Below, one piece after another: positions 6,127-43,279 of a DNA stretch of 64,000 nt; within the stretch, counting starts at the first letter, position 1; each line of letters opens with the position of its first letter. Made by a program: the position numbers and the translations under genes. The notes under the pieces are model-generated. The model worked only from the letters and a program-made list of their open reading frames with translations. It made no database searches and was not told the DNA's origin. Location of the stretch: positions 64,976,001-65,040,000 of the forward strand of contig OX597821.1 in assembly GCA_951406725.2 (NCBI GenBank), written 5' to 3'. The DNA is from Octopus vulgaris. Taxonomy: Eukaryota.

Positions 6127-6161
<35 letters not shown>

Positions 6162-6685
6162 CTGAGAATGTGTTTCTGTCTGTCAGTCTGTGTGTTTCCC
6201 TAAAACTTGAGAACTACACAACCAATTTCATCCAAATTTTACACATACCTTACGTAGGATCCATGTAGTTTCATGGGCAAAAAAAATGTTCAACTTCTTG
6301 CATAGAGCAAGCTCATAGCAATATCATATCTTCTCCACTATTTCAGTATTACGTGTTAAAAGTGAAACAAAAACGTTTCTCTATTTTATGTCAGATACTT
6401 TCACTTTAACAATAAAAAATAATAATAACAATTGAATTATATGTAGTAAGTAATAATTAAAATCAAACTAAAGTATAATATAATCATAACATAACAAAAG
6501 TAAAAATAGAAATTGGTATAAAATTGCATCAATGACTTGAACTTGAATAAGTGGTTTCACATGAATGGGAATAAATTAAAAATAAAATTAGCGTGCAGAA
6601 ATGGAATAGTCCAGATGGATAATAAAAAATTAAATTAAAGAAAAAACTATTGTCTATAAAGTATACAATGTAGAGGAAAAAGGTT

Positions 6686-8360
6686 ACGTTTTTTTTGCGC
6701 TCTGTGTTTTTTGCTCTCTGTGGAATTCGGTAAAGGGAGGAGGGAACAAGGGGTGAATGGTTGTTGTTGTAAAATTTTGAACGTGGTTGATGCGGTTTCG
6801 CGTCTCGCTGGTTCTGCGCGTTACACTTTTTCGGTTCGGGAGGCCGTTTCTCGGCCGGAGGCGACTATGAGCCGCCTCCATCAGGCGGAGGAGATGGAAG
6901 GGAGATTTTACTCTGAAATTTCGACGGAGGTGTCGACATCTGAGGAGGAGTTGGCGGTGAAAAGGATGGAAGGCGCCTGCGCAGGTGTGACGAGGAGGTC
7001 AACGGAAAGAGAGATGGACCTGGCTAGGTTGGCGGGCCTCCAGGAGTTTGTGAAGGAGGACGAGAGCGGTGAGGTCGAGCTGCTGAATCCAGTGGGGCGC
7101 GGAGACTGGTTCCATCGTGGAACCATTAAATATAAAGTATTTATGAATGGAGGTGGAAGGATGGAAGTGGTCAACATGGAGGCAATTGAAGGGGCTCTCA
7201 AGCAGACGGGAGAGGAAGTTGTGTACATGACAGGGGGATTGCAATGCGGAGCGATAGCGGTGCAGTTTAGAAGCGAAGAAGCAGCCAGGAATGTGGCAGC
7301 CAGGGTGGTGAGTACGGAAGGGATTTGCTTGTTGCCCTCATATCTGAATGGGCGGACAACCAGAATTAGGGTGGAGGGAATACCTCCACACCTAGAGGGC
7401 GAATTAATAACGGCTGCGGTTATAAAAGGAAATGAAGATAAAGTGGACATCCTCCACGCCATTATGAAGTATGAAGGCGTGAGAGGTGCCACACTAGTTA
7501 TGAACATTCAAGCGGAGGCGGATGTTATAGAGAGGATTACGGACAGCATAAAAACTGGAAATATTATTATGAGAGTGTGGGTGGAGGGTAGGGCGCCCAG
7601 GTGCTACAAGTGTGGCCAAAGGGGTCACATAAGAGCCTACTGCCCTCCCCCACCAAAGGAAAAAGAAAAGGAAAGCGTTGAGGAAGCCTCAGGAGAGGAA
7701 GAAAATAAACAGAAACAAACAGAGAAGGAAACGACAGAAGAAGAGGAGATGCAACAAGAGTGGAAAGAAGTGGGAACAAAGAGAAAGAGAAAGAAAAAGA
7801 AAAACTGTGCGAAACCCCAACCCACCCCGACACCACCCATACCCTTGGAGTCCCATCCTTCCCCTGCAAACAGTGATTCCACCCACTCCCCGCCTACAAG
7901 AAAAACAAAAACAGACACACAGAGCAAAGAAAGTCCCAAGACCCATTTTTTATGTGTTATACAAGGGAAAGACATACAAAACGTTAAAAAACTGGTGTTA
8001 ACCAAGTGGTACGAACACGAAGATTGGAGCTACACGGCTGTGGATAGTGAGGATACGGGTATATTGGCGACAAGGTTTGAGGAAGAGGGTGTGTGTTGGA
8101 AGTCAGTGGAAATGAAAGATGAATGGATAGAGAGGGCTAAAAGAAAAACGAATGTTGTGATAGGTGAAACAGGAATACTAATTGAAAATGGGTGAAGAAG
8201 GACAGATAAGTGATGCTGGCGGATGGGGCCGTCGGTATCGCTCTCATATATCATTTTCATATTCCATTTTGCTCATATATATGTAATTGTGATGTTCCAT
8301 GTCCCCATGTCTTGTAATGTCCCCCTCTTCGTTGGCCCCTTGTGGGTAATAAAAAATCAT
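6686..8360 (+). mobile_element. ORF1/gag-only retroelement-like unit 1
   Basis: Begins ACGTTTTTTTTGCGCTCTG, ends GCCCCTTGTGGGTAATAAAAAATCAT; single long ORF; termini shared with units 2 and 3. Confidence 0.8.
6867..8195 (+). CDS. Gag-like/ORF1-type nucleic-acid-binding protein (Tx1 ORF1/ZCCHC3-like), 442 aa from first ATG, intact
   Basis: Open frame 6711-8195, first ATG at 6867 (MSRLHQ...). CX2CX4HX4C knuckle CYKCGQRGHIRAYC, preceded by RRM-like segments (AIAVQFRSEEAA; TRIRVEGIPP) and followed by acidic, basic NLS-like (KRKRKKKK) and Pro-rich tracts. Confidence 0.8.
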   Translation: MSRLHQAEEMEGRFYSEISTEVSTSEEELAVKRMEGACAGVTRRSTEREMDLARLAGLQEFVKEDESGEVELLNPVGRGDWFHRGTIKYKVFMNGGGRMEVVNMEAIEGALKQTGEEVVYMTGGLQCGAIAVQFRSEEAARNVAARVVSTEGICLLPSYLNGRTTRIRVEGIPPHLEGELITAAVIKGNEDKVDILHAIMKYEGVRGATLVMNIQAEADVIERITDSIKTGNIIMRVWVEGRAPRCYKCGQRGHIRAYCPPPPKEKEKESVEEASGEEENKQKQTEKETTEEEEMQQEWKEVGTKRKRKKKKNCAKPQPTPTPPIPLESHPSPANSDSTHSPPTRKTKTDTQSKESPKTHFLCVIQGKDIQNVKKLVLTKWYEHEDWSYTAVDSEDTGILATRFEEEGVCWKSVEMKDEWIERAKRKTNVVIGETGILIENG

Positions 8361-10093
8361 ACGTTTTTTTTGCGCTCTGTAAAATTCGGTAAAAAAGAAC
8401 AAAAAGCGTTGTTGTTGTTGTGGAAATTCTGAACGGCGTTGACGCGGTTTCGCGTTTCGCTCGTTCAGCGCGTTACACTTTTTTCTGTTTTGGCGGCCGT
8501 TTTCGGTCTGTCAGACAGAAGGAAATGGACTATGAGTCTTAACAGACTTGTCCACGACAGATGAGGAACTGGAACAGGCAATTGCAATGAAGCTGATGGA
8601 AGAAAAGGCTGGAGTTTTCGAGTCTTTATCAGACTTGTCTACGTCTGAGAAGGAGCTAGAAATAGGCAGCAAGGAAATTGGAAGAGAAGCTGGGTTATAC
8701 CTATGCCGGTGTAACCAAGAAGGCGGAAGAGAAAGGGGTCGACATGGCCAAGTTGCCAAGTTACCAGAAATACATGAAAAAGGAAAGCGGTGAGGTGGAA
8801 CTATCACCGACACCCAGGAGAAAAGAATGGTATGATAAGAGGACCATTGTTTACAGGGTGTGCGCAAACGAAAGGAAGAGGGTAGAAGTTGTATCCATGG
8901 AATGGATAGAGGAAGCCCTGCGAAGAACTGAGGAGGAAATAAATTTTCTGACTCGAGGATCCAAGTACGGGACCGTAGTTGTGCACTTTAAAAGTGAATC
9001 TGCAGCGAGGAAGATGGCAGCGAAGGCGGTGAAGTCGGAAAAGGTAACACTGTTACCTACGTATTTAAACAGGAGGATTACACGAATAAGGGTGGAGGGA
9101 GTGCCACCAAACGTGGAGGCAGAATGGATTGTGGCGGCTGTGATCAGCGGCCACGAGGACGAAGTGGATATTCTCCATGCCTCGGTTAAGTCCGAGGGCT
9201 GGAGAGGCGTAACAGTGGAGCTGAACGTACAGGCAGAGACCGAGGTACTGGTGGACCTGACGGAAAGCATCAGACTGGGAGACGTGGTCATGAGAGTGTG
9301 GGTGGAGGGCAGGGCTCCACGTTGTTACAAGTGTGGCCTGAGGGGTCACATAAGAGCCTTCTGCCCTCCCCCAGGGAAAGAAATGGATTCCGAACCAGAG
9401 AGAGAGAAGCAGAAACCAGAGGAGAAGGAAACAGAGGAAGAGAATACACAGAAATGGAAGGAAGCTGGAAGTAAGAGGAAGAGAAGAATATGTGGAAAAA
9501 AAGAAAATAATATGGAACTCCAATCTACCCCAAAACCTCCCACACCCTCTGAGTCCCACCCTATCCATGCAGACATTGAACCCACCCGCTCCCCCCAACA
9601 AGAAAACAAAAGAAAAAAAGAATACACACACACAAGAGATTGAAATCGAACCCAGGCCGTACATTTGTACTATGACTGAACAGAAAGAAGTTAAAAGTCT
9701 AATGGAAGAGTATAAATGGTATGATGTTGGAGAGACTAGGTATGCTGTGATTGAAAAGAAGAACATAGGTGAGTTTATGGGGAGGTGTGAAAGGGAGAAT
9801 TGGGAGGTGAAAGATATAAGAATGAGCGATGAATTCGTGGAAAATATGGATGAGTATTTCGGAGTAAGAATGGATATGGAATTTATTCGTATTGGCAAAG
9901 AACATTCAAGTGACTATGAAAAACAAAGGACAGGTAAGTGATGCTGACGGACGGGGCCGTTGGTATCGCTTTCATTTTATCATTTTTTTCGTTTAACAAT
10001 TCATGTTCATAAAGTTTAATTATAATGTTCTATGTCCCCATGTTTTGTTATGTCCGCTATTCTTCGTAGCCCCTTAGTGGGTAATAAAGAAAT
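8361..10093 (+). mobile_element. ORF1/gag-only retroelement-like unit 2
   Basis: Begins ACGTTTTTTTTGCGCTCTG directly after the unit 1 tail; ends GCCCCTTAGTGGGTAATAAAGAAAT. Confidence 0.8.
8525..9941 (+). pseudogene. Frameshifted ORF1-type CCHC protein (unit 2)
   Basis: ORF pieces 8548-8793, 8678-9643 and 9492-9941 together match the unit 3 protein; knuckle CYKCGLRGHIRAFC. Frameshifts near 8530, 8665-8680 and in the C/A runs at ~9597-9620. Confidence 0.75.
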
Positions 10094-11777
10094 ACGCGTT
10101 TTTTTCGGCTCCTGAAAATTCGGTAAAAAAGAACAAAAAGCGTTGTTGTTGTTGTGGAAATTCTGAACGGCGTTGACGCGGTTTCGCGTTTCGCTCGTTC
10201 AGCGCGTTACACTTTTTCTGTTTTGGCGGCCGTTTTCGGTCTGTCAGACAGAAGGAAATGGACAACCCCTACCTGATGGGAGATACGGCTGCAGTTTTTG
10301 AGTCTTTAACAGACTTGTCTACGTCTGAGGAGGAGCTAGAAATAGCAGTGAGGAAAATGGATCAGAAGCTGGGTTATACCTATGCCGGTGTAACCAAGAA
10401 GGCGGAAGAGAAAGGGGTCGACATGGCCAAGTTGCCAAGTTACCAGAAATACATGAAAAAGGAAAGCGGTGAGGTGGAACTATCACCGACACCCAGGAGA
10501 AAGGAATGGTATGATAAGAGGACCATTATTTACAGGGTGTTCGCAAACGAAAGGAAGAGGGTAGAAGTTGTAACCATGGAATGGATAGAGGAAGCCCTGC
10601 GAAGAACTGAGGAGGAAATAAATTTTCTGACTCGAGGATCCAAGTACGGTACCGTAGTTGTGCATTTCAAAACTGAGTCTGCAGCGAGGAAGATGGCGGC
10701 GAAGGCGGTGAAGTCAGAAAAGGTAACCCTATTACCTACGTATTTAAACAGGAGGATTACACGAATAAGGGTGGAGGGAGTGCCACCAAACGTGGAGGCA
10801 GAATGGATTGTGGCGGCTGTGATCAGCGGCCACGAGGACGAAGTGGATATTCTCCATGCCTCGGTTAAGTCCGAGGGCTGGAGAGGCGTAACAGTGGAGC
10901 TGAACGTACAGGCAGAGACCGAGGTACTGGTGGACCTGACGGAAAGCATCAGACTGGGAGACGTGGTCATGAGAGTGTGGGTGGAGGGCAGGGCTCCACG
11001 TTGTTACAAGTGTGGCCTGAGGGGTCACATAAGAGCCTTCTGCCCTCCCCCAGGGAAAGAAATGGATTCCGAACCAGAGAGAGAGAAGCAGAAACCAGAG
11101 GAGAAGGAAACAGATGGAAGAGAATACACAGAAATGGAAGGAAGCTGGAAGTAAGAGGAAGAGAAGAATATGTGGAAAAAAAGAAAATAATATGGAACTC
11201 CAATCTACCCCAAAACCTCCCACACCCTCTGAGTCCCACCCTATCCATGCAGACATTGAACCCACCCGCTCCCCCCAAACAAGAAAACAAAAGAAAAAAA
11301 AGAATACACACACACAAGAGATTGAAATCGAACCCAGGCCGTACATTTGTACTATGACTGAACAGAAAGAAGTTAAAAGTCTAATGGAAGAGTATAAATG
11401 GTATGATGTTGGAGAGACTAGGTATGCTGTGATTGAAAAGAAGAACATAGGTGAGTTTATGGGGAGGTGTGAAAGGGAGAATTGGGAGGTGAAAGATATA
11501 AGAATGAGCGATGAATTCGTGGAAAATATGGATGAGTATTTCGGAGTAAGAATGGATATGGAATTTATTCGTATTGACAAAGAACATTCAAGTGACTATG
11601 AAAAACAAAGGACAGGTAAGTGATGCTGACGGACGGGGCCGTTGGTATCGCTTTCATTTTATCATTTTTTTTCGTTTAACAATTCATGTTCATAAAGTTT
11701 AATTATAATGTTCTATGTCCCCATGTTTTGTGATGTCCGCTATTCTTCGTAGCCCCTTAGTGGGTAATAAAGAAATC
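10094..11777 (+). mobile_element. ORF1/gag-only retroelement-like unit 3
   Basis: Begins ACGCGTTTTTTTCGGCTCCTG; ends GCCCCTTAGTGGGTAATAAAGAAATC, after which the Helitron sequence resumes. Confidence 0.8.
10258..11623 (+). pseudogene. ORF1-type CCHC protein (unit 3), one +1 frameshift
   Basis: ORFs 10258-11154 and 11114-11623 join into one ~455-aa frame if the extra T in ACAGATGGAAG (~11116; unit 2 has ACAGAGGAAG) is removed. Confidence 0.75.
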
Positions 11778-13227
11778 ACATGGAGAAAAGCACCTTCGAA
11801 AAGTGTCTTGGTGCGACTATGAAAGCTATCTAATCAGAGCAGTAAATTCGCCACAATAGAAGCAAGGTTCGAGTCAACGGAGCGTGCAAGGGAGTACTCG
11901 ACTCGAACTTGCAAAGTGGAAATAATTTATAATTATTTTTACCTTTATATCTAGGACGTCCCGGAAACAATTTAAAATGCACACCTCCCCCAGAAGTAGA
12001 GGTAGGCTGGATTGTAGCCACACTTCTATACAAGAGGGAGGACAAGATACAATTGATCGAAATTACAAGAGACGGGCTAACAATTCCAGTCTGTTATATA
12101 TTTTTAGTATTGTTATCACTAACGATATCAATATATAACTTTATATTTTGTATTTTATGTGTAGATGTATATATATAGATGTACACATATACATACACAG
12201 ATATACATGCACTAGCACTATGACTCGGCAACGACGGGTCTTTAATGCTAGTATATATATAAAACTGAGAATGTGTGTCCGTCTGTCTGTGTGAATCCCT
12301 GAATCTTCAGAACTACACAACCAATTTCATTCAAATTTTGCACATGCCTTACTTAGGGTCCAAGGAGTGTCGTGGGCTCGCTCTGGGCGCCATTGGGCTC
12401 ACTGTCCACAGCTACGACGCCACAGTGAGCGCTATGGCGACCAGAGCATTGGCCATACCGTAATAAAAGGTTTGGCTTGGCTTGGCTTGGCTTGGAAAGG
12501 AAAGGAAAGGAAAGGAAAGGAAAGGAAAGGATTTTAATTATATATAGAGAACTATAGCGGGAAGCATAAAAAAACAACCATTCCTCAGTTGTTGGCAGTT
12601 TTACCTACTCCGCATTGCAACAAGATGCGTCTTCTGCAAAGCAATTGCTCGCCCAAAGCAATTTAAATAAATTTGAGATACGTGGAACGTCAAAGCTGCT
12701 AGCAAAAACAGGACAGTGAAAACATTCGGCAAGGGCTGTTTAACCCTAACGAGGTTAAGTGGTGAACGCTGGAGAAAGAAGGCTTTGTCTAGAGACCGAC
12801 AAGAATGTATGAACGAGAAGAAAAAAAATTACATTTAGAAGTGGATCTATAATTATTGAGGTCAGAATTTCTGTTAGAAATAGAGAACTATAAATATTGA
12901 ATTATGCATAAAGTGCTGACTTACATTCGGGGCTTCCAATTTCTCTGTAATGTATAAGATAATCGCAAAATCATCGCACATGTCACCATCGATTACAAAC
13001 AACGGTGGAAGATAAAAGTTCCAGATCACTTTCTTGTTATTTCATTCGTACAAGGATCGTATTATGTTTCGGCTTAAAATAAATTATAGATACAAATATA
13101 ATGTATAGAAATATATAAAAACCAGAATAGAAAATAAACGTCTTAGGCATATAAAATAAGATAACATGAGATATCAAGGTGTTATAAACTTGAAACCTAC
13201 TAGAATATCATAGATTATATATATATA

Positions 13228-15783
13228 TCAAGTCATCCAGTCAGTTCTGTCCAATTTTACCTTTTTTTTAGATTTGAATGAAATTTAATAGTATTTGCAA
13301 ATGTCTAATTCAATTAAAACTTATTTTTATGCATTTGTGTACGTTTAAACTAATTAAATATTGGTTTACAAAATAATAGACGGTGTCCATAAAGTCTGCG
13401 TACATGGGGATTAAGACATACTTTTAAAACAAAACAATTTTATTTAATTATAATGTTAATAAATAATATTTTCAAAGTGATTTCCATCATTTTCAATGCA
13501 TAACTTGATGCGCCTTGCAACATTCAGGTGAACTTGATTAAATAAGTGTACATTGCTATCAATTTCAGCACACTGACTGGTAATGCGTTCTCTCATGTGT
13601 TTTATATCTGTAATCTTTATTGAGTAAACTTTCTCTTTCAACATACCCCAGAAAAAGAAATCAAGGGGAAAAAGGTCTGGTGAACGAGGGGACCATTCCA
13701 TATGACCCCTTCTTCCAATCTAGTGAGGAAAAGTGTCATTAAGCCAATCTCTAACAGTTGTGGCAAAATGGGCAGGGGCCCCATCCTGCTGAAACCAATT
13801 CGGAAGGCCCAAATTAAGATATTAATATGTTTCTCAATATATTTGCATAAGTCTCATCCGTTACATGTTCAATGAAGAAGGGTCCTAGAACATGAGCTTT
13901 CCAAAAACCACACCACACCATCACCTTTTTGCTGCCTGGCTGTTTGGATAGATCCATCCAATGTGGATTACCTCGAGATCAATATAGAAGATTCTGTCTG
14001 TTGACCTCACCATTTACATAAAACGTAACTTTGTCACTGAACAACACAAAGTTTTTCGTAAAATTGATATTTTCATCCAATTTATCTGAAAACCATTCGC
14101 ACATCTACATTCGTCTATCAGGATCGTCTTCATTTAAGCGATGCAATATCTGTAGGTTGTATCGATGAAACTTTTCCTCAACCAGCATTTTGTGGATGGT
14201 TGGTTTTGAAACACCTAACACCGTGGATGTCCGACGAAGTGGTTTCTTTGGGCTAGCAGAAACTTTAGCCTCGACAGCCTCTTTCGTTTCATATGAAGTC
14301 TTTGGTCGCCCGGAACGGGGTTTATCCAAAATACTGCCTGTTTTTTTTTTATTTCTTGATCAATTTCCCGACGGCATTAAAAATAAAATAGGTTACCTAT
14401 AAGGTGGTGGAGATTTTATTCTTCCGCAATTTTGCGATAAGACCATCCCTCTCATCCACTTAATAATACTAACTCGATTCTTTCTTCTTTAGACAGATCC
14501 ATCATTCGATCTGGGATTCTTTCTTCTTTAGGCAGAGCCATCATTCGATCATCTGTAGAAAAAATAACAAATAAATTTAGAAAAGTAAAGTATTTTTTTT
14601 ATTTAATTTAAACAAAATTAAAAAAGGAACATTATTATTTCTTTATATTTGTTTATGTTATGATTTTATTCCATGTACCCAGACTTCGTGGACACCCTAA
14701 AATTGCTTTGATTAAAACCCTTTCAACATGGAAGTATCCAAGGAGTATTTAAGGCACATATAATTCTTTATGAGTACAATAAAGGTAACTCTGCAGCCGA
14801 AGTGACTCGAAACATACACTCAGTTTATGGGAAAGTGCTTGAATGAAAGAACTTGCAGGAGATCGTTTGCAAAATTGAAGATGAAGATCGAATAGGATGT
14901 CCAGTTGAGCTTGATGATAAGCTCCTTGGGGCATTACTTGAAGAAAATCCGTCATTATCTGTTGAAGTATTGGCAATAAAGCTTACTTCAAACCATACAA
15001 CAGTTCATCGTCATCTTCAACAACGTGGAAAGATTCCTAAACTTGGAAAATAGGTGCCTCATGTATTGTCAGAAAGCAACCGCAAATCCCGAGTTGACAT
15101 CTGCTCTTCTCTCTATTCTCGCAAACTCATTTCACCCTTTTTTGATAGACTTGTGACGAAAAATGGATTTTCTATCGAAATGTTAAACGTCGTAAACAGT
15201 GGCTTGGTAAAAGGGAAAATGCTCAACCACAAAGAGAAGGGAACTTTATGGGAAAAAAGGTTCTACTCTATCTGGTGCGATTGCAAAGGCGTAATTCACT
15301 TTATATTGTTACCACCTAATGCAACAATCAATGCTCAAGTCTACTGTCAGCAATTAGAGCGTTTGAACCAAGCTTTGAAGGAAAAAAGAGCAGGTTTAGT
15401 GAGTCGAAAACGAGTGATGTTTCATCCACACTGCAAAGATCACATCACAGAAGATCGAAGAGATCGGTTTGGAAAAATTTCTTCGTCCAACTTATTCTCC
15501 CGACCTTACTCCTTCAGGATACCATTTGTTTCATAGTTTACAAAATTATTAGAGGGACACAACTTTCGCAAGCCAGGAAGAGGTCGAACCTGACGTTTTA
15601 GAGTTCTTCGATTTGAAACCAAAAGAATTTTACATTGATGGGATTAAAAAGCTTGTAAATAGATGGAAGTAAGTCATAGATATTCAGGGAAACTACATTG
15701 ATGATTAACTTTCAATTAAATATAACATTTGATCACTTGGATTCTTTATCCATAATTCGGACAGAACTTATGGGATGACCTGA
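13228..15783 (+). mobile_element. Mariner (Mos1-like) DNA transposon, decayed
   Basis: Imperfect TIRs CAAGTCATCCAGTCAGTTCTGTCC (13229) and GGACAGAACTTATGGGATGACCTG (~15759-15782). Transposase remnants 14728-15705: MEVSKEYLRH.., LGK*VPHVL (WVPHEL motif), EKWIFY, IWCDCKGVIHF, YSPDLTPS; several stops and frameshifts. Confidence 0.85.
13379..14698 (-). mobile_element. Tc1/mariner-superfamily transposon (DD40D/DD41D-like), nested in the mariner 5' leader, decayed
   Basis: TIRs ACGGTGTCCATAAAGTCTGCGTACATGG / CCATGTACCCAGACTTCGTGGACACCCT. Minus-strand FQQDGAPAHF...W(S)PRSPDLFPLDFFFWG with 40 residues between the 2nd and 3rd Asp; N-terminal DKPRSGRPK AT-hook-like linker. Confidence 0.85.
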
Positions 15784-17670: not shown

Positions 17671-17744
17671 ATATATATATAAATTAGGGAAAACCACTAT
17701 TATGTAATTCAAATAACTGAAACAAGTAAAAGGGAGAGAGTATA

Positions 17745-18240
17745 TATATATATATAAAACTGAGAATGTGTGTCTGTCTGTCTGTCTCTCTGTCTGTGTG
17801 TTTCCCTAAAATTTGAGAACTACAAAACCAAATTCATTCAAATTTTACACATGCCTTACTTAAGGTCCGGGGAGTGTCATCGGCAAAAAATCTTAACTTT
17901 TTCCCTCGGGCGACCCCACAGCAATATCATATCTTCTCCACTCTTTCAGTATTACGTGTTAAAACTAAAACAAAAATATCTCTCTTTTGTAATGCAGACA
18001 CTTTCATTTTAATACTGAAACTATTAAAGTGAAAGTATTATATAACAGGGCTGAACCATTAACAAGTGGTCATCCATTTTGATAGAAGAAGATCCGCTAT
18101 GGTCTTATTTGCTACACCAATATTCAATTTTTCACCCTTATTATGTGTGTGTGTGTGTGTGTGTGTGTGTATTAGCATTTCGTATAAAATTGCATCAATG
18201 ACTTGAACTTGAATAAGTGGTTTCACATAAACGGGCATCA
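17745..18240 (+). mobile_element. Helitron-like family copy (variant, partial)
   Basis: Same 5' ~260 bp, then a variant interior also seen inverted at ~40750-40870. Confidence 0.7.
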
Positions 18241-18541
18241 TTTTAAAATGTTTGTTGTTATTATTATTACTGTTTGACTATTATAATCACGTTTGTTGGT
18301 TCCTCGTCAGGGAAACGTTGTGTTGCATTTGTTAAACTGGAGAAGGAGCTTTGGTTATTGTTCAAAAATTGAATTGTGACCCTGTTGGGGAAATTGACCA
18401 TATTTTCTCCGTCTTTACCGAAGCATTTTTGTTTAAATGCCTTCGATAGAAGAAAGTCCCAAAATGAATTTCGCTGCAGCCGAGTGAGGACAAGATCCAG
18501 TTGATCGAAATTGCAAGAGACGGGCCTACAATTCCAGTCTG

Positions 18542-18583
<42 letters not shown>

Positions 18584-19582: not shown

Positions 19583-19638
19583 GTACATTCAAGTATGTAT
19601 GTACAATACACATAAATATGTAAATATGTATGTATGTA

Positions 19639-20445
19639 CAGCAGGCCAGCTGGAGAGCAGCAGGCCAACTGGAGAGCAGGCCAGCTGGAGAGCAGGCCAG
19701 CTGGAGAGCAGGCCAACTGGAGAGCAAGCCAAAAGCAGAGAAAGCCAAAAGGGGAGCAGGCCACCTGGGCAGCAGGCTAACTGGAGAGCAGACCAGCTAG
19801 AGAGCAGCAGGCCAACTGGAGCGCAAGCCAACTGGAGAGCAGGCCAGCTGGAGAGCAGCAGGCCAGCTGGAGAGCAGCAGGCCAACTGGAGTGCAAGCCA
19901 AAAATAGAGCAAACCAACTGGAGAGCACCCCAAATGGAGAGCAGGCCAGCTGGAGAGCAGGTCAACTGGAGAGCAAGCCAAAAGGAGAGCAAGCTAACTG
20001 GAGAGCAAGCCAAATGGAGAACAAGCCAAAAGGAGAGCAAGTCAAAAAGAGGGCAAGCCAACTGGAAAGCAAGTCAAATGGAGAGTAAGATAACTGGAGA
20101 GCGAGCCAAAAGGAGAGTAAGCCAAAAGGAGAGAAAGCCAACTGGAGAGTAGGTCAACTGGAGAGCAAGTCAAAAGGAGAGCAAGCCAAATGAATAGTAA
20201 GCGAAACTGGTGAGCAAGTCAAAAGGAGAGCAAGCCAGCTGGAGAGCAATTCAAAAGGAGAGCAAGCAAAATGGATAGCAATTCAAAAGGAGAACAAGCC
20301 AACTGGAGAGCAAGCCAACTCGAGGGAGAGCAGGCCAAATCGAGAGCAGGCCAGCTTGCGAGCAGGTCAACTGGAGAGCAAGCTAGCTGGAGAGCAGGCC
20401 AAATGGAGAACAGGCCAGCTGGAGACCAGGCCAAATGGAGAGCAA
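19639..20445. repeat. Purine-rich minisatellite, 16-bp unit GGAGAGCAGGCCA(A/G)CT with 19-bp variants
   Basis: About 50 degenerate tandem units; source of the spurious RASQ/LACSP ORFs. Confidence 0.9.
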
Positions 20446-20454
20446 ATATCAATA

Positions 20455-20764
20455 TCAGCAGATGGAGAAACTTTCAAAATACAAAGACCTGGAAATAGAG
20501 GTAACTCGAATTTGGAATCTAAAAACAGAAACAATAGACATGATAAAATATTCAGACAAATACATAACAAAAATATCAGGACTTACAAACACATATAACA
20601 TACAGAAAATTGCACTACTAGGCACTGCCCACATCCTACGCAAAACTCTTTCAATACAGTTCAATACATCAGAGCATCACAACAAATCACAGCACATACC
20701 CAAGGTACACTGGGCTGTGCTCGCTAGTGAAGTGAAAGCACGATATATAAAAAAGAAACAATGG

Positions 20765-20765
<1 letters not shown>
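20455..20765 (+). mobile_element. R4/Dong-like REL-LINE 3' fragment
   Basis: EKLSKYKDLEIEVTRIWNLKT...IQKIALLGTAHILRKTL, homologous to the C-terminus of 34048-34720; ends in (AAT)n. Confidence 0.75.
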
Positions 20766-20813
<48 letters not shown>

Positions 20814-21787
20814 TAATAATAATTAGTAGTAGTAGTAGTAGCAGTTGTAGTTGAAGAAGAAAAGAAGTGAAACAGAACGAGTGCGTGTGTTTACTATTAG
20901 CATAATAATCCTGCCAAAATATTACAAAACAACTATTAGAAAATGCAAAATAGTTTTTTTTAATTTTTGAAAAGTAGAAGTGATAAGTCTATAAATTCTA
21001 AAGCCATAATGACGTAATCAATGAATATTTAATTTTGCTATACAAGTCAAAATAGGGGTGAGGGAATACAAGTCTGCGAGTAAATTGAGAGAACTTACTG
21101 TTACTAAGAGAATAAATGATTCACACACGCCATCCTCATCACAAAACAATAGTTAGGTCCGTATTAACATGTGCATAGCAGAAAACTTAGATAGATCCGA
21201 ACAACTTTCTAGTATCTCAAGATTCTCATCAAAAACTGAATATCTTCCTTCTGTCCACGGCAAGATTTAATAACAAGTTTATTCTGGATGTTTACAGAAT
21301 AGGACGCAGCTAAATCTGTGAGTTAATTTGCAGAATTAATTTATAACAGATTTGTTGGAAACTGTCAAATATAAAGTGTACATTTTCGAAATAATCATAT
21401 AATTTTAAACATGCTGTATAACGTAAGCTAAGTCTTTATATCTCAGATTTTATATCCCTGTGAGCAGTAAAAAGTGAAATCAATCTCATTAGTTTCTCGT
21501 CTACTGCGACTTTAATCAGAGAAAAGATACCCATTTTCTGTCCGCACAGATTATTAACAGCTTTTACTTATTAGCAGATATGCCATGTAAGACTTGGGAT
21601 AAACTGGTCGCAAAAGTATGGTTAATGTAAATGCTATTTTCTCCGTCTTTACCGAAGCATTTTTGTTTAAATGCCTTCGATAGAAGAAAGTCCAAAAATG
21701 AATTTCGCTGCAGCCGAGGGAGGAGAAGATCCAGTTGATCGAAATTGCAAGAGACGGGCCTACAATTCCAGTCTGTTATATATTTTG

Positions 21788-21836
<49 letters not shown>

Positions 21837-22560
21837 GTAAATGTAATATGTGACAATTATTCGGTAGCCATGATAAAACTCCGTGTTTCAGAGAGAATTA
21901 CATAAAGACATGCAGAGAGACTCCCGAAACAATCATACGTTATGTTCAAATTATTTGTATTGAGCAAAGCTGATTATGGTTGGTAGAACCAAAGGCTGGA
22001 TGAGGAGGAAAGAGGAATAAAGGAACGTGTGCACATGTTTCTTACAGTTGTTTAAGGATAGATGAGGAGATTGTTTGTTTGCCACAAACGATCGGTAGCC
22101 AGAAGGAATAGATGGAAACCAATGTTAACTGCCGATCGCTTGCAGTGTAATGCAGCTTCCCTTTTTCCTTCTCATTCACCTTTTCGTTGACTTTAACTTA
22201 TACCAACTGTCCCTGAAGGCTGTAAGATGGCGGAATCGCTAGCACGCCGTAGCACGCCGGAGCACGCCGGAGCGCGCCGGGGCACGCCGGAGCATGCCGG
22301 AGCAAACCGGGTGAAATGCTTAGCGGTATTTCGTCTGTCGTTACGTTCTGATTTCAAATTCCGCCGAGGTCGACTTTGCCTTTCATCCTTTTATCATCGA
22401 TTAAATAAGTACCAGTTACGCACTGGGGTCGATATAATCGACTTAATCCGTTTGTCTGTCATTTGTCTTCTCTGTGTTTAGCACCTTGGGATAGTAAAGA
22501 AATAGATATTTCGTCTGCCGTTACGTTCTGAGTACAAATTCTGCCGAGGTCCACTTTGCC

Positions 22561-24830
22561 ATTCTCCCTTCTTCGGCCTCTTTTTGATCCACGACTGCTG
22601 TTCGGTCATGGAGACGATCTGCGGGAAAGCGCGCCTCACAAACGGCGACCTCACCTGTTCACTGTCATCTAAGTAGAGCCGAAGATGTCACCATCGCGAG
22701 ACTGCGCATCATCAACCATGACATGCCCAGCCCTCCTTTTAACGGGTGTTGGTAGCAAACGGATCGCCCGACCATCGGAGCGCATCCTTTCCACAAGAAG
22801 CGGAAGAGAATGCGTTCTATCTTGGTGATGATAGGGTCGGGACAAGGCAGGGCGGTCAAACGGTAGTAGATGACGGAAGCGATGTATGTGTTCGCCACCT
22901 TCGCCCGACCTTTAAGGGACAGCTTCCTCTCGTTCCATTGCCAGGCGAGAGTGATCCCCCCGCTCGTTATCTTGTTCCAGTTCTTCGTTTGGAGGTCAGG
23001 ACTAAATCAGAACGCGAAAAACTCGACAGGACCTTCGGTCCAGCGTCCCACGACGGAGGCGATGGTGGACGGCGTGGGCTTGCTTCTCTAGGTACCGAGC
23101 GGCAAGCCCACTGACTTTTACCGGTTGATTTTCGCTTCTGTTACCGCTTCGTAGTCGTTCAATGTCTCACTGACCAGCTCGATGTGTTTCTGGCTTGACA
23201 CTACGACGGTAACGTCGTCCGCGTATACAGTCACGCACGTCCCGTATCCCAATTCTTGCGGGATGTCCCTCAGCGTCGCCATCTTCCGCAGTACTGGTTC
23301 GAGGGTCAGTACGTATAGAAGCGACGAGAGGGGGCATTCCTGACGGACTGAACGTGCAATGGCGAAAGGTCTCGATAGATGTCCATTTACGCGAATTACC
23401 GAACGGATGCTCTGTACAAAGCAGCTATCCAGCCGCGGAAGACGAGACTGAAACCAGCCGCTATGAGGATAGCCTCCAAGTATCGATTGTCTACCCTATC
23501 GAACGCATTTGATTGATCCAAATTGATCAGGTCCTCACACATGCCATGTTATTTAACTACCCTGTGTATGATGTAGCGCATCAGATGGATGTTGTCATGG
23601 ATGCTCCGGCCCGGCACAACACACGTTTGCGCCTTATCGTCCAGTTTCTCAATGACAAGCGCTAACCACTTGGCTAACACTTTGACCAAAGTCTGCATTG
23701 AGCAGAGTGATGGGCCTAAAGTTATCTATTACGTCCCCCTTGTTTGAATCTTTCTTCAGCAGAGTTACGTCTCCTCGGCTCACGAAACCGGGGATGCTCC
23801 CGTTTTGCTGCCAGATGCAGTACACTGCTGCAAAGACGTCTCCAAACGAGTCTGATATACAACTTTAGCTCATAGAGTTGACCATCCAAACCCGGCGATT
23901 TGTCCCTCGAGCATTCTGCCATCGCGTTCCGCGCTTCCGCTGCCGTGATGGCACCTTCGCAGCACCCTGCCTCTCTTGTAGAGAATAGTGGAAGGCCTTT
24001 CAACAGCATTTTCCCCGACTGTTCGGGACGAGCGGCGAGCGAGAACGCAGGGTGGACTTCACTGCCTACATGCACAGCCTGCCACTACTCTCGACAAGAG
24101 ATTCACGCCCTTGTTCATCTACCAGAGACCGAATGGTGGCTTTGTTGCCCTGTTGCGCCTCCGCCACCCGGGCCTCTCGCGCGGCTCCAACAACTTCGTT
24201 CCTTAGAGCACGCATCCTAGCTCTGACATCACACTCTTCGTGTTTGGCGTTGAAGTGTTGGTCGAGGGCCAACCTCGCCGCCAAAACCTCGGATACGATT
24301 CCACTTCTAATCGGCTCTTCTAGCTTTTTAACTAGGTCACCTTCTACTCTGTTTCTATCTATGGCAAGTGCTTTGCTATACCTAATCGCTTCTACTTTTA
24401 TTGCTCTCTTGAGGGCAAACCACCATTTGCTGTTGACGATGGCTCCTGTCAAAGCCCTCTTTACTAGCGTGCTAATCCGTCTTTGAAAACTTGTCTGGAT
24501 GGGAAAGATGCGTTTAGTTTCCAGTACCCGGGACTCTGCCTATGTGTCTTATCTAAATCTATCATACACGTCACAAGTTTGTGATCCATGTAGTTGACTA
24601 TGTGGAATTGTGGACACCCTAAGCTATCTCTATCTACTGTCCTACACAGTATCCTATCTAGATACGATCTCGATGACCCTATGCGGTTGCTCCATGTTCA
24701 CGTTGGCACATTCGGGTGGTCGAGTCGTTACCTGTCAGACAGTTGAAAGCGTCTGAGCAGGTCTCTGAGCCATTTGCATCCCCGTCTATTCCTATCTCTG
24801 CCCACATAGTCTACATGTGTGTCAAGCAGT
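22561..24830 (-). pseudogene. Tx1/L1-clade LINE ORF2 remnant (APE endonuclease C-terminus plus reverse transcriptase)
   Basis: Minus-strand motifs SRSYLDRILC, MDHKLV, PGYWKLNAS, KSPGLDG, SVRQGCPLSSLLY, VYADD (~23215-23230), FRFLWKG...KGGLG; many stops and frameshifts; truncated at both ends. Confidence 0.9.
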
Positions 24831-29355: not shown

Positions 29356-29605
29356 CATTATTATTTAGGTTGTGAGCTGACATATTCCTTACTGCGCCCG
29401 GGAAAAATGCTTAGCGATATTTCGTCCATCTTTACGTTTCGAGTTCAAATTCCGTCTAGGTCGACTTTGCATCTCTTCCTTTCGGGGACGATAAATTAAG
29501 TACTAGTTGAGAACTGGTGGGTCGATGTAATCGGCTAATCCTCTCTCTCAAATTTCAGGCCTTGTGCCTACAGAATGAAGTGTTATTATTATTATTTTTA
29601 TTATT

Positions 29606-30398: not shown

Positions 30399-30876
30399 TT
30401 TTTACCTCCGCCTAGGGAGGAGGTTACGTTTTCATCGGCGTTGGTTTGTCCGTCTGTCCCTCTGTCTGTCCGTCTGTGCGCAAAATAACTCAAAAAGTCA
30501 TAAATAGTATTTAGTGAAATTTGCAGAAATAGTTGGTAATGACACGAGGAACAGATGATGAAATTTTGGTAGTGATCCTGAAATTTTCATGAATTCTTGA
30601 AGGATTTTTCATTTATTATATTTACTTTACATGAAGTATTACAGTTACGTTCTTTGATTAACTCCCTTGAAAACACGTTCATCGTTTCCATGTAACCTAT
30701 GGTGGCATTGCTGTTTCCAAAGTTTATTTTCGTTTCTCGATTAGTAATTTTACTCGCGTATCTATCTTAAAATGAGCTGCTTGGCGTAGGTCTACGAAGG
30801 ATGACATGTCAAACCTTGACTATTGGGATCGACTCTGGTTGGCAGATGTCTGTGCTCTCGGAGTGCTTTTCTAGTT
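30399..30876 (+). mobile_element. Helentron-associated non-autonomous element (DINE-1/HINE-like)
   Basis: T-run then ACCTCCGCC subterminal IR, internal (GTCT/GTCC)n, degenerate partner IR (GGCGTAGGT / GGCAGATGT), 3' stem-loop followed by TTTTCTAGTT. Confidence 0.7.
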
Positions 30877-31002
30877 TGCTAACTGTTTTTGTCTTTTTAT
30901 TGTTTACACACTTTCTGTTTTAAACCACAGATGCCACTTGTTTTGAATTGTCCCTTTATGTTTTTCTTTTCGACCCTTGTGGCCAATAAAGAAAAGATTA
31001 TA

Positions 31003-33480: not shown

Positions 33481-33511
<31 letters not shown>

Positions 33512-34928
33512 GCGATCAATGCATTAGCTATACCAGTCGTGACTTACAGTTTCAATATTGTTAACTGGTCAATTACTGAAATATGTTAGCTCGACAGAAA
33601 AATAAGGAAACTGTTGACAACGCATAGAATGCACCACCCTAAGGCAGATACAGAACGACTCTATCTGCCAAGAAAAGAGGAGGCCGTGGTCTTTTGCAAC
33701 TGGCAATAACAATGAAGATTGCTACAATTGGCCTAGACACCTACCTGAAAAACTCTGAGGACTGGATGTTAAAACTTGTCTCAAAACATGAAAACAAGAA
33801 AGCATCATACTCAGTCACAAAACAGGCAAAGGAATATCTAAGTGAATTCCGAATACAACCAATTTCGGAATTAGAGATAGATATACAAGAAACAAGCAAA
33901 GAAAAAGCTAGGCGCATGAAAACCCGTGCCAAAACTGCGGCCTAAGATATTCTGAATAATAAATGGCAAGAAAAACCTCTCTATGGCAAATACCCAAAGA
34001 GAGCGAATAATGCAGATATCGACAAAGCCCTGACCCATCAATGGCTAATGGCCTCTGGCTTAAAATCTGAAACAGAGGGGTTTATCATAGCAGCTCAAGA
34101 TCAATGCCTACCAACAAGAAACTACCAGGCCAACATATTAAAGATCAGAAGCAGTCCCACGTGTCGTGTATGCAAGCAACAAAATGAAACCATTGACCAT
34201 GTGGTCTCCAAGTGCAGTCTTCTAGCGCCTACAGAGTATCTCAACAGGCACGATAGAGCTGCACAATATATTCACTGGGTAATCTGTAAAAACCTGGATT
34301 TGCCCCATGAAAAAAACTGGTGGGAACACAAATCACCCCCAGTGCTTGAAAATGACCACATCTCACTCCTCTGGAACTTCACCATTCAAACTGACAGGAA
34401 GATAGATGCAAATAGGCCAGACATCATATTGAAAGACTTCAAACAAAGAACATGCCTCCTCATTGATATGACTGTCCCAATCGATATAAACGTATCTGTC
34501 AAGACCTACCAAAAACTGAGCAAATATAAAGATCTTGAAATAGAAATCAGCAAAATGTGGAAGCTGAAGACTAAAACAATACCTGTTGCCATAGGTGCCC
34601 TGGGAATGATAGCAAAAGGGGCTGATAGCTACCTAACTCAGATACCAGGAAACCCCAAAATGGCAGAAGTTCAAAAGATAGTGCTCATGGGAACTGCTAC
34701 GCAAAATACTCTCTATGTAATCTCAAGGTTTAAAACAAACATAATTTTCGGTTTAAAAAAAAAAACCTTTTTTTTTTAGACATTCATTAGTACAACATCC
34801 CCACCCCCCAAATATATGGCACACTAGGCATAGCAACAATATGAACTTTCAACCCTGTTGTCTCTTGAGGTCTCTGGGTGAGACTTGGAGCCAACTTGTA
34901 CAAATATAAAGCAAAAGTCAAACATAGA
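33512..34928 (+). mobile_element. 5'-truncated R4/Dong-like non-LTR retrotransposon (RT thumb, CCHC, restriction-like endonuclease)
   Basis: HHPKADTERLYLPRKEGGRGL; CRVC-X8-H-X4-C; RHD; NRPDI...LID...KLSKYKDL (PD-D-xK REL motifs); flanked by (AAT)n at both ends. Confidence 0.9.
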
Positions 34929-35260
34929 ATAATAATAATAATAAATGGCCTGATGCAGTACCAGGCAGTGGCTCTCTGGGCTTCTGATCTTAACTGATTG
35001 GAAGTGTTATCATGTACATTTTTTTGTCTTGGCATAAAAGATGGGCTACAGCAAATATTTTGCTCAATACCACAGATTTGCTTGTCAGTTGTTTGACCGT
35101 AATCAGGTGAGCATGTCCCATAGTGGCTGATGATATGTGCATCTCTGATCACGAGCAGAAGTAGTGGGGGAAGCATCATAGCCATGTGTTGAGAGGGATT
35201 TTGGTGGGCATGAATAATACACCTCTGGAAACATGGGTGTTTCGTTCAACATCATATATA

Positions 35261-36295
35261 TCTTTATATATATAAAACTGAGAATGTGTGTGTGTGTCTG
35301 TCTGTCTGTGTGTTTCCCTAAAACTTGAGAACTACACGACCAATTTCACTCAAATTTTACACATGCCTTACTTAGGGTCCATGTAGTTTCATGGGGAAAA
35401 GAAATGTTCAACTTCTTGCCTAGAGCGAGCCCATAGCAATATCATATCTTCTCCACTATTTCAGTATTACGTGTTAAAAGTGAAACAAAAACGTTTCTCT
35501 ATTTTATGTCAGATACTTTCATTTTAACAATAAAACTAATAACAATTCAATTATATGTAGTAAGTAATAATCAAAATCAAACTAAAGTATCATATAATCA
35601 TAACATAACAAAAGTAAAAATAGAAATTGGTATAAAATTGCATCAATGACTTGAACTTGAATAAGTGGTTTCATATGAATGGGAATAGATTAAAAATAAA
35701 ATTAGCGTGCAGAAATGGAATAGTCCAGATGGATAATAAAAAATTAAATTAAAGAAAAGACTATTGTCTATAAAGTATACAATGTAGAGAAAAAAGATTT
35801 GAACAGATGGAGAAAAGCACCTTCGAAAAGTGCCTTGGTGCCACTATGAAAGATATCTAATCAGAGGCAGTAAATTCGCCACAATAGAAGCAAGGTTCGA
35901 GTCAACGGAGCGTGCAAGGGAGTGCTCGACTCGAACTTGCAAAGTGGAAAATTTTTATTTTTACCTTTATACCTGGGACGTAGGACGTCCCGGAAAAAAA
36001 TTTTAAATGCCCCCCCCCCCCCCGAAGTAGAGGTAGGCTGGATTGTAGCCATACTTCTATACAAGAGGGAGGACAAGATACAATTGATCGAAATTACAAG
36101 AGACGGGCTAACAATTCCAGTCTGTTATATATTTTGAGTATTGTTATCACTAGCGATATCAACATATAACTTTGTATTTTGTATTTTATATGTAGATGTA
36201 TATATGTAGATGTACATGTAATATGTACACATATATATACACATATATACATGCACTAGCACTATGACCCGGCAACGACGGATCTTTAATGCTAG
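35261..36295 (+). mobile_element. Complete non-autonomous Helitron-like element (empty version of 6126-12251)
   Basis: A|TCTTTATATATATAAAACTGAG ... GACCCGGCAACGACGGATC hairpin ... CTAG|T; no TSD. Confidence 0.85.
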
Positions 36296-36503
36296 TATAT
36301 ATATATATGAGAAAAACAACTAGTTTAATCCTCTGATTGAGATATATGTAGTATCAGTACCGAACAGTACTGCCAACATAACGTGGCAGTTCTGAATTAG
36401 GGCTATGTTACTACTCCTTAACCCTGGGAAAACGTCTTTTCCAGCTGGTTTATCGACACATGATCTATATATATATATGTATATATATATGTATATATAT
36501 ATG

Positions 36504-36656: not shown

Positions 36657-37270
36657 ATATAATTAAGGGCTAAAGAGGGTTATTCTAAAGCCAATACACT
36701 GATTTATCCACTTATAATCCGCTTGCTACAGGAGCATTGAAACTGAAAACGGGCAACTAACCTTTAGAAAATTTAAATTCCGTTATCTCTATATTGAATC
36801 AATTTCGGAATTAATCTTATAAAAAAGATATATTCTTTCTTCAGTAGAGCTTTCGATGGGATATAAATAAAATACTCACGTATGATCATGGAAAAAGCAC
36901 AAGCTAAAAACATAACTACACTTGAGTACATCATTTATATCTAAAAATAAAAATTCTTTGGTCAGCTTCAGAAACAACGTCTTGATCTTTCGCCGCTACA
37001 AATTGTAATGGTTACCGGTCCTCCCGTAGCAAGCAGCGAGTTTACTACTAGCAATATAGGATGAAGTCCCTTTCTCTACAGAAAAAGCTCTACTGAAGAA
37101 AGAATATATCTTTTTTATAAGATTAATTCCGAAATTGATTCAATATAGAGATAACGGAATTTAAATTTTCTAAAGGTTAGTTGCCCGTTTTCAGTTTCAA
37201 TTCTCCTGTAGCAAGCGGATTATAAGTGGATAAATCAGTGTATTGGCTTTAGAATAACCCTCTTTAGCCC

Positions 37271-37280
<10 letters not shown>
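36657..37280. repeat. Near-perfect ~195-bp inverted repeat with ~230-bp spacer
   Basis: 36657-36853 is the reverse complement of 37084-37280 (one mismatch seen); a ~40-bp direct repeat lies at 36552 and 37046. Confidence 0.9.
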
Positions 37281-40739: not shown

Positions 40740-41072
40740 TAAGACGATAGCGGATCTTCTTCTAGCACAATGGATGTCCAGTTCATCTCTGTTATATAAT
40801 AGTTTGACTTTAATAGTTTCAGTATTAAAGTGAAAGCATGTGACATTACAATAGAGAGATGATTTTGTTTCACTTTTAACACGTAATACTGAAATAGTGG
40901 GGAAGATATGACATTGCTGTTGGCTCGTACTAGGCAAAATGTTAAAAAAAAATGTTTTGCCCATGACACTACATGGACCCTAAGTAAGGCATATGTAAAA
41001 TTTGAATGAAATTGGTTTTGTAGTTCTCAAGTTTTAGGGATTCACACAGACACACACACACACACATTCATT
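40740..41072 (-). mobile_element. Helitron-like family 5' fragment
   Basis: Reverse complement of the family 5' region (CCCTAAAACTTGAGAACTACA...). Confidence 0.7.
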
Positions 41073-43279
41073 CAGCTGTAAAAATGAGTTGAGAACTTTA
41101 CTAGTGCCAGGCCGTATCGTCCTTGACCTTTCTCTTGATGACATCGGTGACGTGGAGAGGGAAGGCTGGTATGCATGGGCAACCGCTGGCCTTCCATAAA
41201 AAAAAACCTCGCATAGATTTGTGCCTGGGAGGGGAAATTATCTAGGAGCAATCCCATGGTCCTTCATGGCCTAAGGGGGTCTTTTTACTTTCAGTCAACT
41301 ATTTTTAACTGAAGTACAAGTAAATCATAGAGTTAAAAGACAACAGCCCACGGTTAATCAGTTAGTCAGGACATAACGCTATTAGTTTCTCGGAATCCTC
41401 TCTGTCTACATAGTGAGTGAGAGAGAGAGGGAGAGAGAGAGAGAGAGAGAGAGATGAGAGAGAGACTGGATTTTCAACCAGGAATCGAAACCTCAGTCTC
41501 AGTGCCTCTGTTTGCTGCTTCCCATTGTTCTTTACACGCACTCGGAATATCTGTGTCATCTGTCAACTTTCTCAACAAATTTAGTAAAACTGAATTCATC
41601 TCAGATATACAATTCGCTTTTATTGTTATTGACCTAGTTCTAATTCTATGACAGGTATACATTTGAGACGCTTATAATAGGACAACCCTTCTCTCCTCGG
41701 TAATGTCAGCGATGTAATATCTCTAACTTCCTCTTCGCTCTGCAAATGTCGGACAGGTTACATCTCAAGTCGATAAAAAATTGTTCGCAAAAAATAAGAT
41801 TAATATTTATGAGCACCCAATCTCTCCCGTAGAGAGTGCTTAAATGTTGACATTTTATAATTGCTAATTCTCTTTTCTCTTTCTATTTTCTTCTGTCTGT
41901 CTGTCAGTCTGTCTGTCTCTGTCTGTCTCTGTCTGCCTGTCCCTCTCTCGTCAACTTAATAGTAAGTTTTCTGCAGCAATCGGAGATTCTCTATTAACAG
42001 ACTTACATTTGCAATTCACTTCCAACTGGTACAAATAGTGATAAATTTCGCAATAGTTATCTAAAAAAGCCATGATAACATCTAAAAGCTGTATGTATAA
42101 ATCACCTGTCAATTTATTTCAAACATCCTGAAATTATCAACTATGCATTTTGCAGCCTATCTTCAAACGCAGCCTCCGCCAATCATCTCTTAACAATCAC
42201 AATTATGCGATTACAATCTCGTAGCTGTCACAATCTGTGCATGTCACATATAACCGTTACGATACCAATACGAGAAATCGCTATTGCTTCTGGTTCCTCA
42301 GACTATATTTAAAGTTTTGTCTACGTCTGCGAAATTATTGTCCTTGCAGCTTTGTTGTCTGTCCAGCCTTTCTCTCTCTGTCCGCCTTTGTCTCTTTCTC
42401 TCTCTCTCTCTCTCTCATTCACTCTCAGTCTCACTCTCTCACTCTCTCTAGGCCACTCACTAGCTCACTCTGGTCACCACTTGTTTGAATTTCTTTAGTC
42501 TCACGCGTTCTATCTCTCCCGCAAGTTCTCTCACGACTTCTGCTCGTTTCTCTCCATACATAGATATTTATAAAGTAATTTCTTCCTCTGTTTCTCTCGG
42601 GAACAAAAGCCACTTCTTAAGGTAATAATATAAACTGTTATTGGAATCTATCTAAATCTACCTAAATTCCTTTATTAATACAGTATCTCTACGAGTAACT
42701 TATTCTTCAGCATTAAAAAATGGTGTAGGACTCTTTTAGATAATACAGTTTCAAATTTTGGCTTAGATTACATGAATCCCACAACTTAAATAGTACTGAT
42801 ATTCTTTTCTACTCTAGGCACAAGAGCCTAAATTTTGGGGGAGGGGAGCAGTCGATTAGATCGGCCCCCAGTACGCAACAGGCACTGAATTTATCGACCA
42901 CCGAGAGGATGAAAGGCAAAGTCAACTTCGGCTAAATTTGAACTCAGAACGTAAAGACAGACGAAAGCATTTCGCCCGGCATGCTAACGTATCTGCCAAC
43001 TCGCCGCCTTAAAATAGTACTTATATCGACACCATCACTCGCTACCTTGTGTGGCTTTAATGAACTGCCTGTTTGTGGTAAACATCTTGCTTGTCTCCAG
43101 TTTGTGGACAACTCTCTCTCTTTCCTATCAGTCATGGAGGTCCTGTAAAGGAACGTCGACAGTGCATGACCGTAGAACATTCGGACTGAGAAGAAATACT
43201 GCAAAGCGCTCCAAAAATTATGACAATTCCGCTTGATAATAATGTTCTTCAAACTTTCGCACAAGTTCGAGGAAGAGAG

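Follow-up and report, generated by a model that had tools for sequence, protein, structure and literature searches.

A 3′ tail common to tandem ORF1-only elements and a SINE subfamily of Octopus vulgaris, and its probable origin from a LINE

Results

The region analysed, hereafter the window, is a stretch of 64,000 nucleotides of the Octopus vulgaris genome (contig OX597821.1). Three tandem units of about 1.7 kb each, with 5′ and 3′ ends common to all three, lie between the two parts of a host repeat that we take to be Helitron-like, and a second copy of this repeat is found further downstream:

6140–6685, plus strand: host repeat, left part, ending within an ORF1-family relic
6686–8357, plus strand: unit 1, with a 5′ UTR of about 180 nt, an intact ORF of 442 aa (6867–8195) and a 3′ UTR of about 160 nt
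8210–8241, plus strand: unit 1, 3′ UTR hairpin of 13–14 bp
8318–8357, plus strand: unit 1, 3′ tail, with a 4-bp stem, a CUUGU loop and AATAAA, without poly(A)
8360–10093, plus strand: unit 2, frameshifted
9938–9969, plus strand: unit 2, 3′ UTR hairpin of 13–14 bp
10052–10093, plus strand: unit 2, 3′ tail
10094–11776, plus strand: unit 3, frameshifted
11620–11651, plus strand: unit 3, 3′ UTR hairpin of 13–14 bp
11735–11776, plus strand: unit 3, 3′ tail
11777–12256, plus strand: host repeat, right part, where the ORF1-family relic resumes
35256–36304, plus strand: empty copy of the host repeat, 90–94% identical, with the ORF1 relic unbroken at 35739–36104

Since the ORF1 relic is uninterrupted in the empty copy at 35256–36304, the three-unit array is recognised as an insertion, whose point of entry lies inside a decayed relic of the units' own ORF1 family carried by the host repeat. 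The host repeat itself (35256–36304 and 6140–6685/11777–12256) is thus the bearer of a captured and decayed ORF1 fragment of that family, and shorter relatives of it occur near 17741–18549, 21716–21849 and 40810–41073. In the ORF core, unit 2 is 94% identical to unit 3 and 68% identical to unit 1. The stop codon of unit 1 lies 160 nt 5′ of the tail, and the 13–14-bp hairpin, absent from the SINE tail described below, is kept across the units with changed base pairs in unit 1 versus units 2 and 3. No ORF2 similarity was found within the unit array, which leaves no room for an ORF2. The units encode an ORF1-type protein without an ORF2, as elements of the HAL1/HeT-A type do, and at this one locus they form a mobile insertion with discrete ends. 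A CA dinucleotide follows the tails of both unit 1 and unit 3, and judging from the sequence it may represent a 2-nt duplication produced by a second insertion at one spot. Head-to-tail unit arrays recall HeT-A, but no sign of a telomeric setting was seen within the window.

The ORF of the units codes for a protein with two RRMs and a CCHC knuckle. Its core was modelled by AlphaFold with a pLDDT of 92.5, the top Foldseek matches of this core were tandem-RRM proteins (E = 1.7e-5), and zf-CCHC was detected at E ≤ 0.05 in 11 of 20 family members, with the knuckle C-terminal of the RRM core. On the basis of the tandem-RRM fold and the downstream CCHC knuckle, the protein is a type I LINE ORF1. Atlas look-alikes, to be read as a lead only, include ZCCHC3-RBD and CCHC clusters at 0.90. 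The single homologue of the unit 1 ORF returned by the first-pass search was a CCHC protein of Octopus bimaculoides. A profile search gave 649 homologue clusters, some of them matching through the knuckle only; the C-terminal part of P0001 was also in the profile. Of the relatives, 12 of 20 looked up are named, and all of these are octopods (Octopus or Argonauta). ORF2 similarity was found in none of the 149 ORF1-profile matches listed, and no ORF1 homologue next to an ORF2 was found among these matches, in ten contigs or in one long contig, on which the profile search yielded two annotated proteins only. All ten assembly contigs with an ORF1 homologue measure 1.1–2.2 kb, four of them 1.85–1.93 kb, a weak hint, contigs being short generally, that the ORF1-only family is widespread. 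Three Octopus gene models, P0106, P0118 and P0152, combine an ORF1 of the units' family with C2H2-finger, LDL-receptor and WD40 genes, which may reflect either annotation artefacts or a genuine capture of exons.

A SINE body profile retrieved 27 matches in the window, five of which end in the tail here called B (SINE-B). SINE-A and SINE-B copies have head and body in common, and their divergence starts at the tail. The SINE-B copies, together with a further element ending in the same tail, are located as follows:

22226–22570, plus strand: SINE-B copy with a decayed tail (22465–22503) followed by a clipped SINE head
43460–44065, minus strand: SINE array B-B-A, the heads after the B tails 43840–43878 and 43656–43695 being clipped at model positions 47 and 17
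47651–48240, plus strand: SINE array B-B-A, both B tails (47843–47882 and 48033–48072) being followed by heads whose clip point is the head-hairpin loop
30266–30995, plus strand: 5′-clipped 3′ end of a third family within (TTA)n, with its tail at 30950–30995

A 3′ end of about 42 nt is common to the three units and the five SINE-B copies, with 69–80% identity. It stops a few bases 3′ of AATAAA, for which AGTAAA or AGTAAG is found in four of the five SINE-B copies, and it is not followed by poly(A). Unit 1 is identical to the SINE-B tails at 29–33 of 41–42 columns and unit 3 at 31–34 of 43, values close to that between unit 1 and unit 3 themselves (35 of 44). The original prediction held that the units and a SINE subfamily share their 3′ tail; every unit and SINE-B tail it named was located in the window, and the similarity is significant against shuffled controls. 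Allowing up to three mismatches, a 24-mer of the tail has seven matches in the window and none in 100 dinucleotide shuffles. Searching with a profile made only of the three unit tails recovered four of the five SINE-B tails (E = 3.9e-5 to 0.0067), the decayed copy at 22.5 kb reaching only E = 2.6, and a ninth tail absent from the original prediction, at 30939–30994 (E = 0.0054). For 11 of the 15 unit–SINE-B pairs, the local alignment score was above those of all 2000 dinucleotide shuffles; in 14 of 15 at most 2 of 2000 shuffles were as good, and in the worst pair, which involves the decayed 22.5-kb copy, 29 of 2000. In a ranking of 12,786 windows of 70 nt, four SINE-B tails came first once the units were set aside, followed by the 30.9-kb tail, and eight other element ends scored 10–16 versus 31–46 for the tail-bearers. 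Chance similarity was discarded on the strength of the shuffles and of this comparison with other element ends.

The exact tail patterns had no match in viral contigs or in metagenome contigs. Seven exact matches in prokaryote genomes, without similarity to the window, to ORF1 or to ORF2, were attributed to chance, and the translated tails matched none of 182 stored proteins. The tail motifs were not found in the texts or searchable supplements of the relevant papers, whose alignments, shown as figures, were outside the search.

The tail had also been predicted to contain a small stem-loop. A 4-bp stem can indeed form, 86% of 36 cells being paired in the nine B-type tails, but in these tails alone both fold and covariation are at chance level: the fold is no better than that of shuffles (z from −0.2 to −1.4), and there is no two-sided stem change among the nine, 149 of 500 shuffles being equally high. 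The stem-loop was accordingly dropped as evidence from the B-type tails alone, and the backing for a hairpin comes only from comparison with the SINE-A sequences. SINE-A subfamilies have two tail types, each with a CUUGU-loop hairpin whose stem is swapped relative to tail B:

47609–47622, plus strand: SINE-A tail hairpin, CUUGU loop, swapped stem
29556–29570, plus strand: as above
43477–43490, minus strand: as above
42815–42830, minus strand: as above

The loop reads CUUGU in unit 1 and in these commoner SINE-A tails, and CUUAGU, of 6 nt, in units 2 and 3. It was assessed at 23 loci, namely 21 of the 27 SINE matches (six truncated or unrelated ones omitted), unit 1 and the 30.9-kb tail, with units 2 and 3 left aside. 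An exact CTTGT is present at 13 of the 23 loci and missing at 10. All three flanking pairs are formed at 7 of the 13 exact tail loci versus 8 of 138 elsewhere (p = 2.6e-5, the copies not being independent), the seven being unit 1, three B and three A tails. A CUUGU-loop hairpin with family-specific stems is found 5′ of the A-rich end in units, SINEs and third family (CUUAGU in units 2 and 3). A constant loop on a swapped stem is what would be expected if the tail were of the stringent kind, with the ORF2 protein reading both stem and loop; in the zebrafish L2 system the cognate ORF2p discriminates by the loop (PMC4176376).

The third family is multi-copy and ends in the same tail as the units and SINE-B. 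Its copy in the window is split by a repeat insertion at about 30402–30877, and public contigs join the two halves across this insert in three of four runs (joints called at 80% likeness). Among the matches listed, 24 (X1) and 32 (X2) contigs run on into (TAT)n, counts that reflect depth and not copy number, and 21 (X2) and 9 (X9, X4) contigs, judged on 30-letter loose ends, have other sequence upstream of the tail. This varied upstream sequence indicates that more families end in this tail.

A feature unremarked in the original prediction is that a 5′-clipped SINE head begins within 8 bases after all five SINE-B tails. Four of these heads are clipped at the 3′ side of the head-hairpin loop and one at model position 17, so that the junctions fall at two sites, with four different junction sequences. 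None of the five SINE-B copies is free-standing, and the two complete B-B-A arrays end in different A subtypes. Pairwise likeness of the bodies is 88% among B (10 pairs) and 79% among A copies (45 pairs), from which the B bodies are taken as younger than the A bodies. The different A subtypes, the varied junctions and the younger B bodies fit independent insertions of SINE-B, which, from the three arrays, might occur preferentially in the tRNA-like heads of older SINEs. In the SINE head, motifs that we take to be A- and B-box-like were read by eye; ARAGORN gave no tRNA genes, and Rfam no tRNA match in 47400–48300. The head of the SINE-B copy at 22243–22310 contains about seven tandem repeats of its own 10-nt piece, and at 316–864 SINE copies are inverted and nested, with a near-palindromic junction at about 416–580.

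The insertion sites differ among the tail-bearers: SINE-B tails abut clipped SINE heads, the units occupy the ORF1 relic, and a (TTA)n tract surrounds the third family. No target motif common to them is visible in the three SINE arrays, the unit array and the single third-family locus.

A LINE that might drive these elements is represented in the window by one decayed fragment:

22535–24829, minus strand: decayed L1/Tx1-like ORF2 fragment, corresponding to residues 116–886 of a 1111-aa relative

The alignment to residues 116–886 of 1111 implies the loss of the last ~225 codons together with the 3′ UTR, and the lack of a 3′ end had been correctly anticipated for this element, which lies on the minus strand. 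Its relative P0027 carries Exo_endo_phos, RVT_1 and zf-RVT, that is, an APE endonuclease, a reverse transcriptase and a C-terminal zinc domain. The Tx1 label, taken over from the original prediction, is presumed here, and the fragment stands as a candidate, unproven relative of the driver. Some octopod L1/Tx1-like ORF2 proteins have a complete C-terminus. No DNA that links an ORF2 with the tail was recovered from viral, metagenome, prokaryote or public contigs, nor from scans of related loci with the ORF2 alignment, in which none of 226, none of 24 and none of 38 candidate stretches was confirmed. Another LINE, presumably Dong/R4-like, is present as 3′ parts at 33500–34930 (plus strand) and 20435–20800 (plus strand), which end in (TAA)n; as a partner, the copy at 33.5–34.9 kb was rejected, having its own, different 3′ end (score 12–13 against the tail). 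An octopod-type LINE ORF2 (P0007/P0024) is assigned in its record to a bacterial MAG (Herbaspirillum sp.), for which contamination by host DNA is the likeliest cause.

Further repeats in the window include a 16-nt tandem array of more than 20 copies (19620–20480), a 197-nt inverted repeat, 99% complementary, with arms 230 nt apart (36657–36853 and 37084–37280) that is possibly a young MITE, and a Mariner-like transposase fragment recognised by eye (15180–15536, plus strand).

Discussion

A common ancestry of the unit and SINE-B tails and a role in recognition by a LINE fit the evidence, given the significance of the match, its position at the very 3′ terminus of three element types and the type I LINE ORF1 encoded by one of them. 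We consider the tail to be the 3′ recognition signal of an octopod LINE lineage, most likely L1/Tx1, that several non-autonomous families have borrowed, and give this reading a probability of about 0.6. That the tail derives from the 3′ end of some LINE is very likely, and that the donor belonged to the L1/Tx1 group is probable. The latter assignment is indirect, being drawn from the type of ORF1, from the repeat targets and from the 80 L1-Tx1 families of O. vulgaris, 13 of them in the list of recently active LINEs (PMC13282606); neither the ORF1 type nor the target habits are unique to Tx1. The RRM/CCHC ORF1s of non-mammalian animals are described in PMC5203782 as consistent with Tx1, and Tx1 elements commonly prefer repeat targets, SINEU following them, according to PMC4494074.

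In mechanistic terms, the units would descend from a LINE that lost its ORF2, as in HAL1 or HeT-A; they would be transcribed by Pol II, and their own ORF1p would coat the unit RNA. SINE-B, transcribed by Pol III, would have gained its tail via template switching. The ORF2p of an intact relative would then bind the hairpin and A-rich end of the unit or SINE-B RNA and copy it at a nick by target-primed reverse transcription. A weaker suggestion is that SINE-B enters the heads of older SINEs and that its 5′ junction closes by homology, which would give the seamless B-B-A arrays.

Less probable as the donor is a LINE outside L1/Tx1 with a type I ORF1, from the I/Nimb, Jockey or CR1 group. Type I ORF1s occur also in elements of the Jockey superfamily (PMC5203782), the main text of a study of mollusc SINEs names CR1, CR1-Zenon, L2 and Nimb as partners in bivalves, with Tx1 unmentioned there (PMC11481361), and in the SINE/LINE pair table of Ohshima's review the stringent partners are mostly CR1, L2 and RTE, and none is Tx1 (PMC3747384). 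Against such a donor, the one CCHC after two RRMs, the ZCCHC3-RBD look-alikes and the repeat targeting all point to Tx1, and among the O. vulgaris LINEs listed as recently active, with 13 families each of L1-Tx1 and CR1, the I, Nimb and Jockey groups are missing (PMC13282606).

The original prediction went further and proposed that one autonomous LINE, perhaps that of the fragment at 22.6–24.8 kb, drives both the SINE and the ORF1-only element. In its favour, unit 1 and SINE-B have the same loop and a likeness (33/42) about equal to that of unit 1 and unit 3 (35/44). The idea of a single driver is what agrees poorly with the data, since the targets differ between tail-bearers, the CUUGU loop is met again in SINE-A tails, units 2 and 3 have a different loop, which in zebrafish L2 is the very feature by which the cognate ORF2p discriminates (PMC4176376), the contigs reveal more families on the same tail, and O. 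vulgaris has 80 L1-Tx1 families to choose from (PMC13282606). The fragment at 22.5–24.8 kb is moreover old and without a 3′ end. With no ORF2–tail junction recovered from the contigs and loci scanned, a single driver and its identity with this fragment are conjectural; we regard it as rather unlikely that one LINE family serves both the units and SINE-B. The combination of three target kinds and two loops speaks for a lineage of relatives rather than for a single LINE, and since each of the three families has its own kind of target, they are probably served by different members of that lineage.

It is improbable that the SINE-B tail is merely an internal relic, with B-A multimers moving by means of the A tail or arrays growing by DNA recombination. 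The lack of free-standing copies (0 of 5), the one junction site used in four of five B copies and the A tail that ends both complete arrays are what such an explanation would predict; it is at odds with the different A subtypes at the array ends, with the two junction sites and four junction sequences, and with B bodies younger than A bodies. Passage of the tail between units and SINE-B, or convergence on a hairpin plus polyadenylation signal, is very improbable: the common block is only ~42 nt and includes an AATAAA-like sequence, and no LINE with the tail was seen in the window or the contigs searched, but the tail is significant against shuffles and eight other element ends, a third family and more upstream variants bear it, and a chain of exchange among non-autonomous elements would still require a reverse transcriptase reading the tail.

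The units are comparable to HAL1 (L1-derived), HeT-A (Jockey-derived) and Ag-Sponge (CR1-derived), which are ORF1-only non-autonomous LINEs (PMC5786205). Like these, the units encode ORF1 alone and have LINE-like 5′ and 3′ ends; unlike them, they are octopod, with a two-RRM plus CCHC ORF1, lack poly(A) and have their tail in common with a presumed tRNA-type SINE. SINE-B in turn resembles the SINEs of the stringent pairs UnaSINE/UnaL2, ZfL2 and ZmSINE2/LINE1-1_ZM in its putatively LINE-type tail of ~40–65 nt with a possible small stem-loop (PMC3747384, PMC4176376), and in the exchange of tails among subfamilies with the same head and body. It has the look of a SINE of the stringent type that has exchanged its tail; the homology of this tail, as read from sequence, is to ORF1-only units and a third family, and in contrast with the stringent SINE/LINE pairs the tail is also borne by a protein-coding non-autonomous element. 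A possible preference for repeat targets and tandem copies that may stem from repeated insertion recall crocodilian SINEU/Tx1-Mar; in SINEU the heads are of snRNA type, the ends are poly(A) and no 3′ end is shared with a LINE (PMC4494074), whereas the head of SINE-B seems to be of tRNA type, its tail is probably structured and its target is apparently the head of its own superfamily. By description, SINE-B is also like the mollusc HCD tRNA SINEs and octopus OR1/OR2, with a head that seems to be of tRNA type, a conserved body, exchangeable tails and tandem arrays (PMC11481361, PMC4824008 and PMC4758252).

No description of these octopod families was found in the literature; Repbase, Dfam and the Zenodo O. 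vulgaris library, which were outside the search, may contain them. Nor was any paper found that names LINE partners of O. vulgaris SINEs. SINEs make up ~12% of the O. vulgaris genome, with most families unclassified, by the account given in PMC13282606, and the shared tail offers a concrete handle for naming a SINE driver in octopus. The principle of shared tails and of ORF1-only elements is already known, and the octopus tail extends this parasite-of-a-parasite pattern. If the driver is Tx1, the finding would touch on the question, left open in Ohshima's review (PMC3747384), of whether stringent 3′ recognition has been retained by L1-group elements of animals. More tentatively, octopod Tx1-group LINEs might read a stringent CUUGU-loop tail with family-specific stems, on which a guild would live, composed of a large and diverse ORF1-only family and of several SINE subfamilies (A and B), one inserting into the head of its own superfamily. 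Were this true, Tx1 would join the clades with stringent SINE partners and HAL1-type derivatives, and the burst of SINEs in octopus would have a candidate engine.
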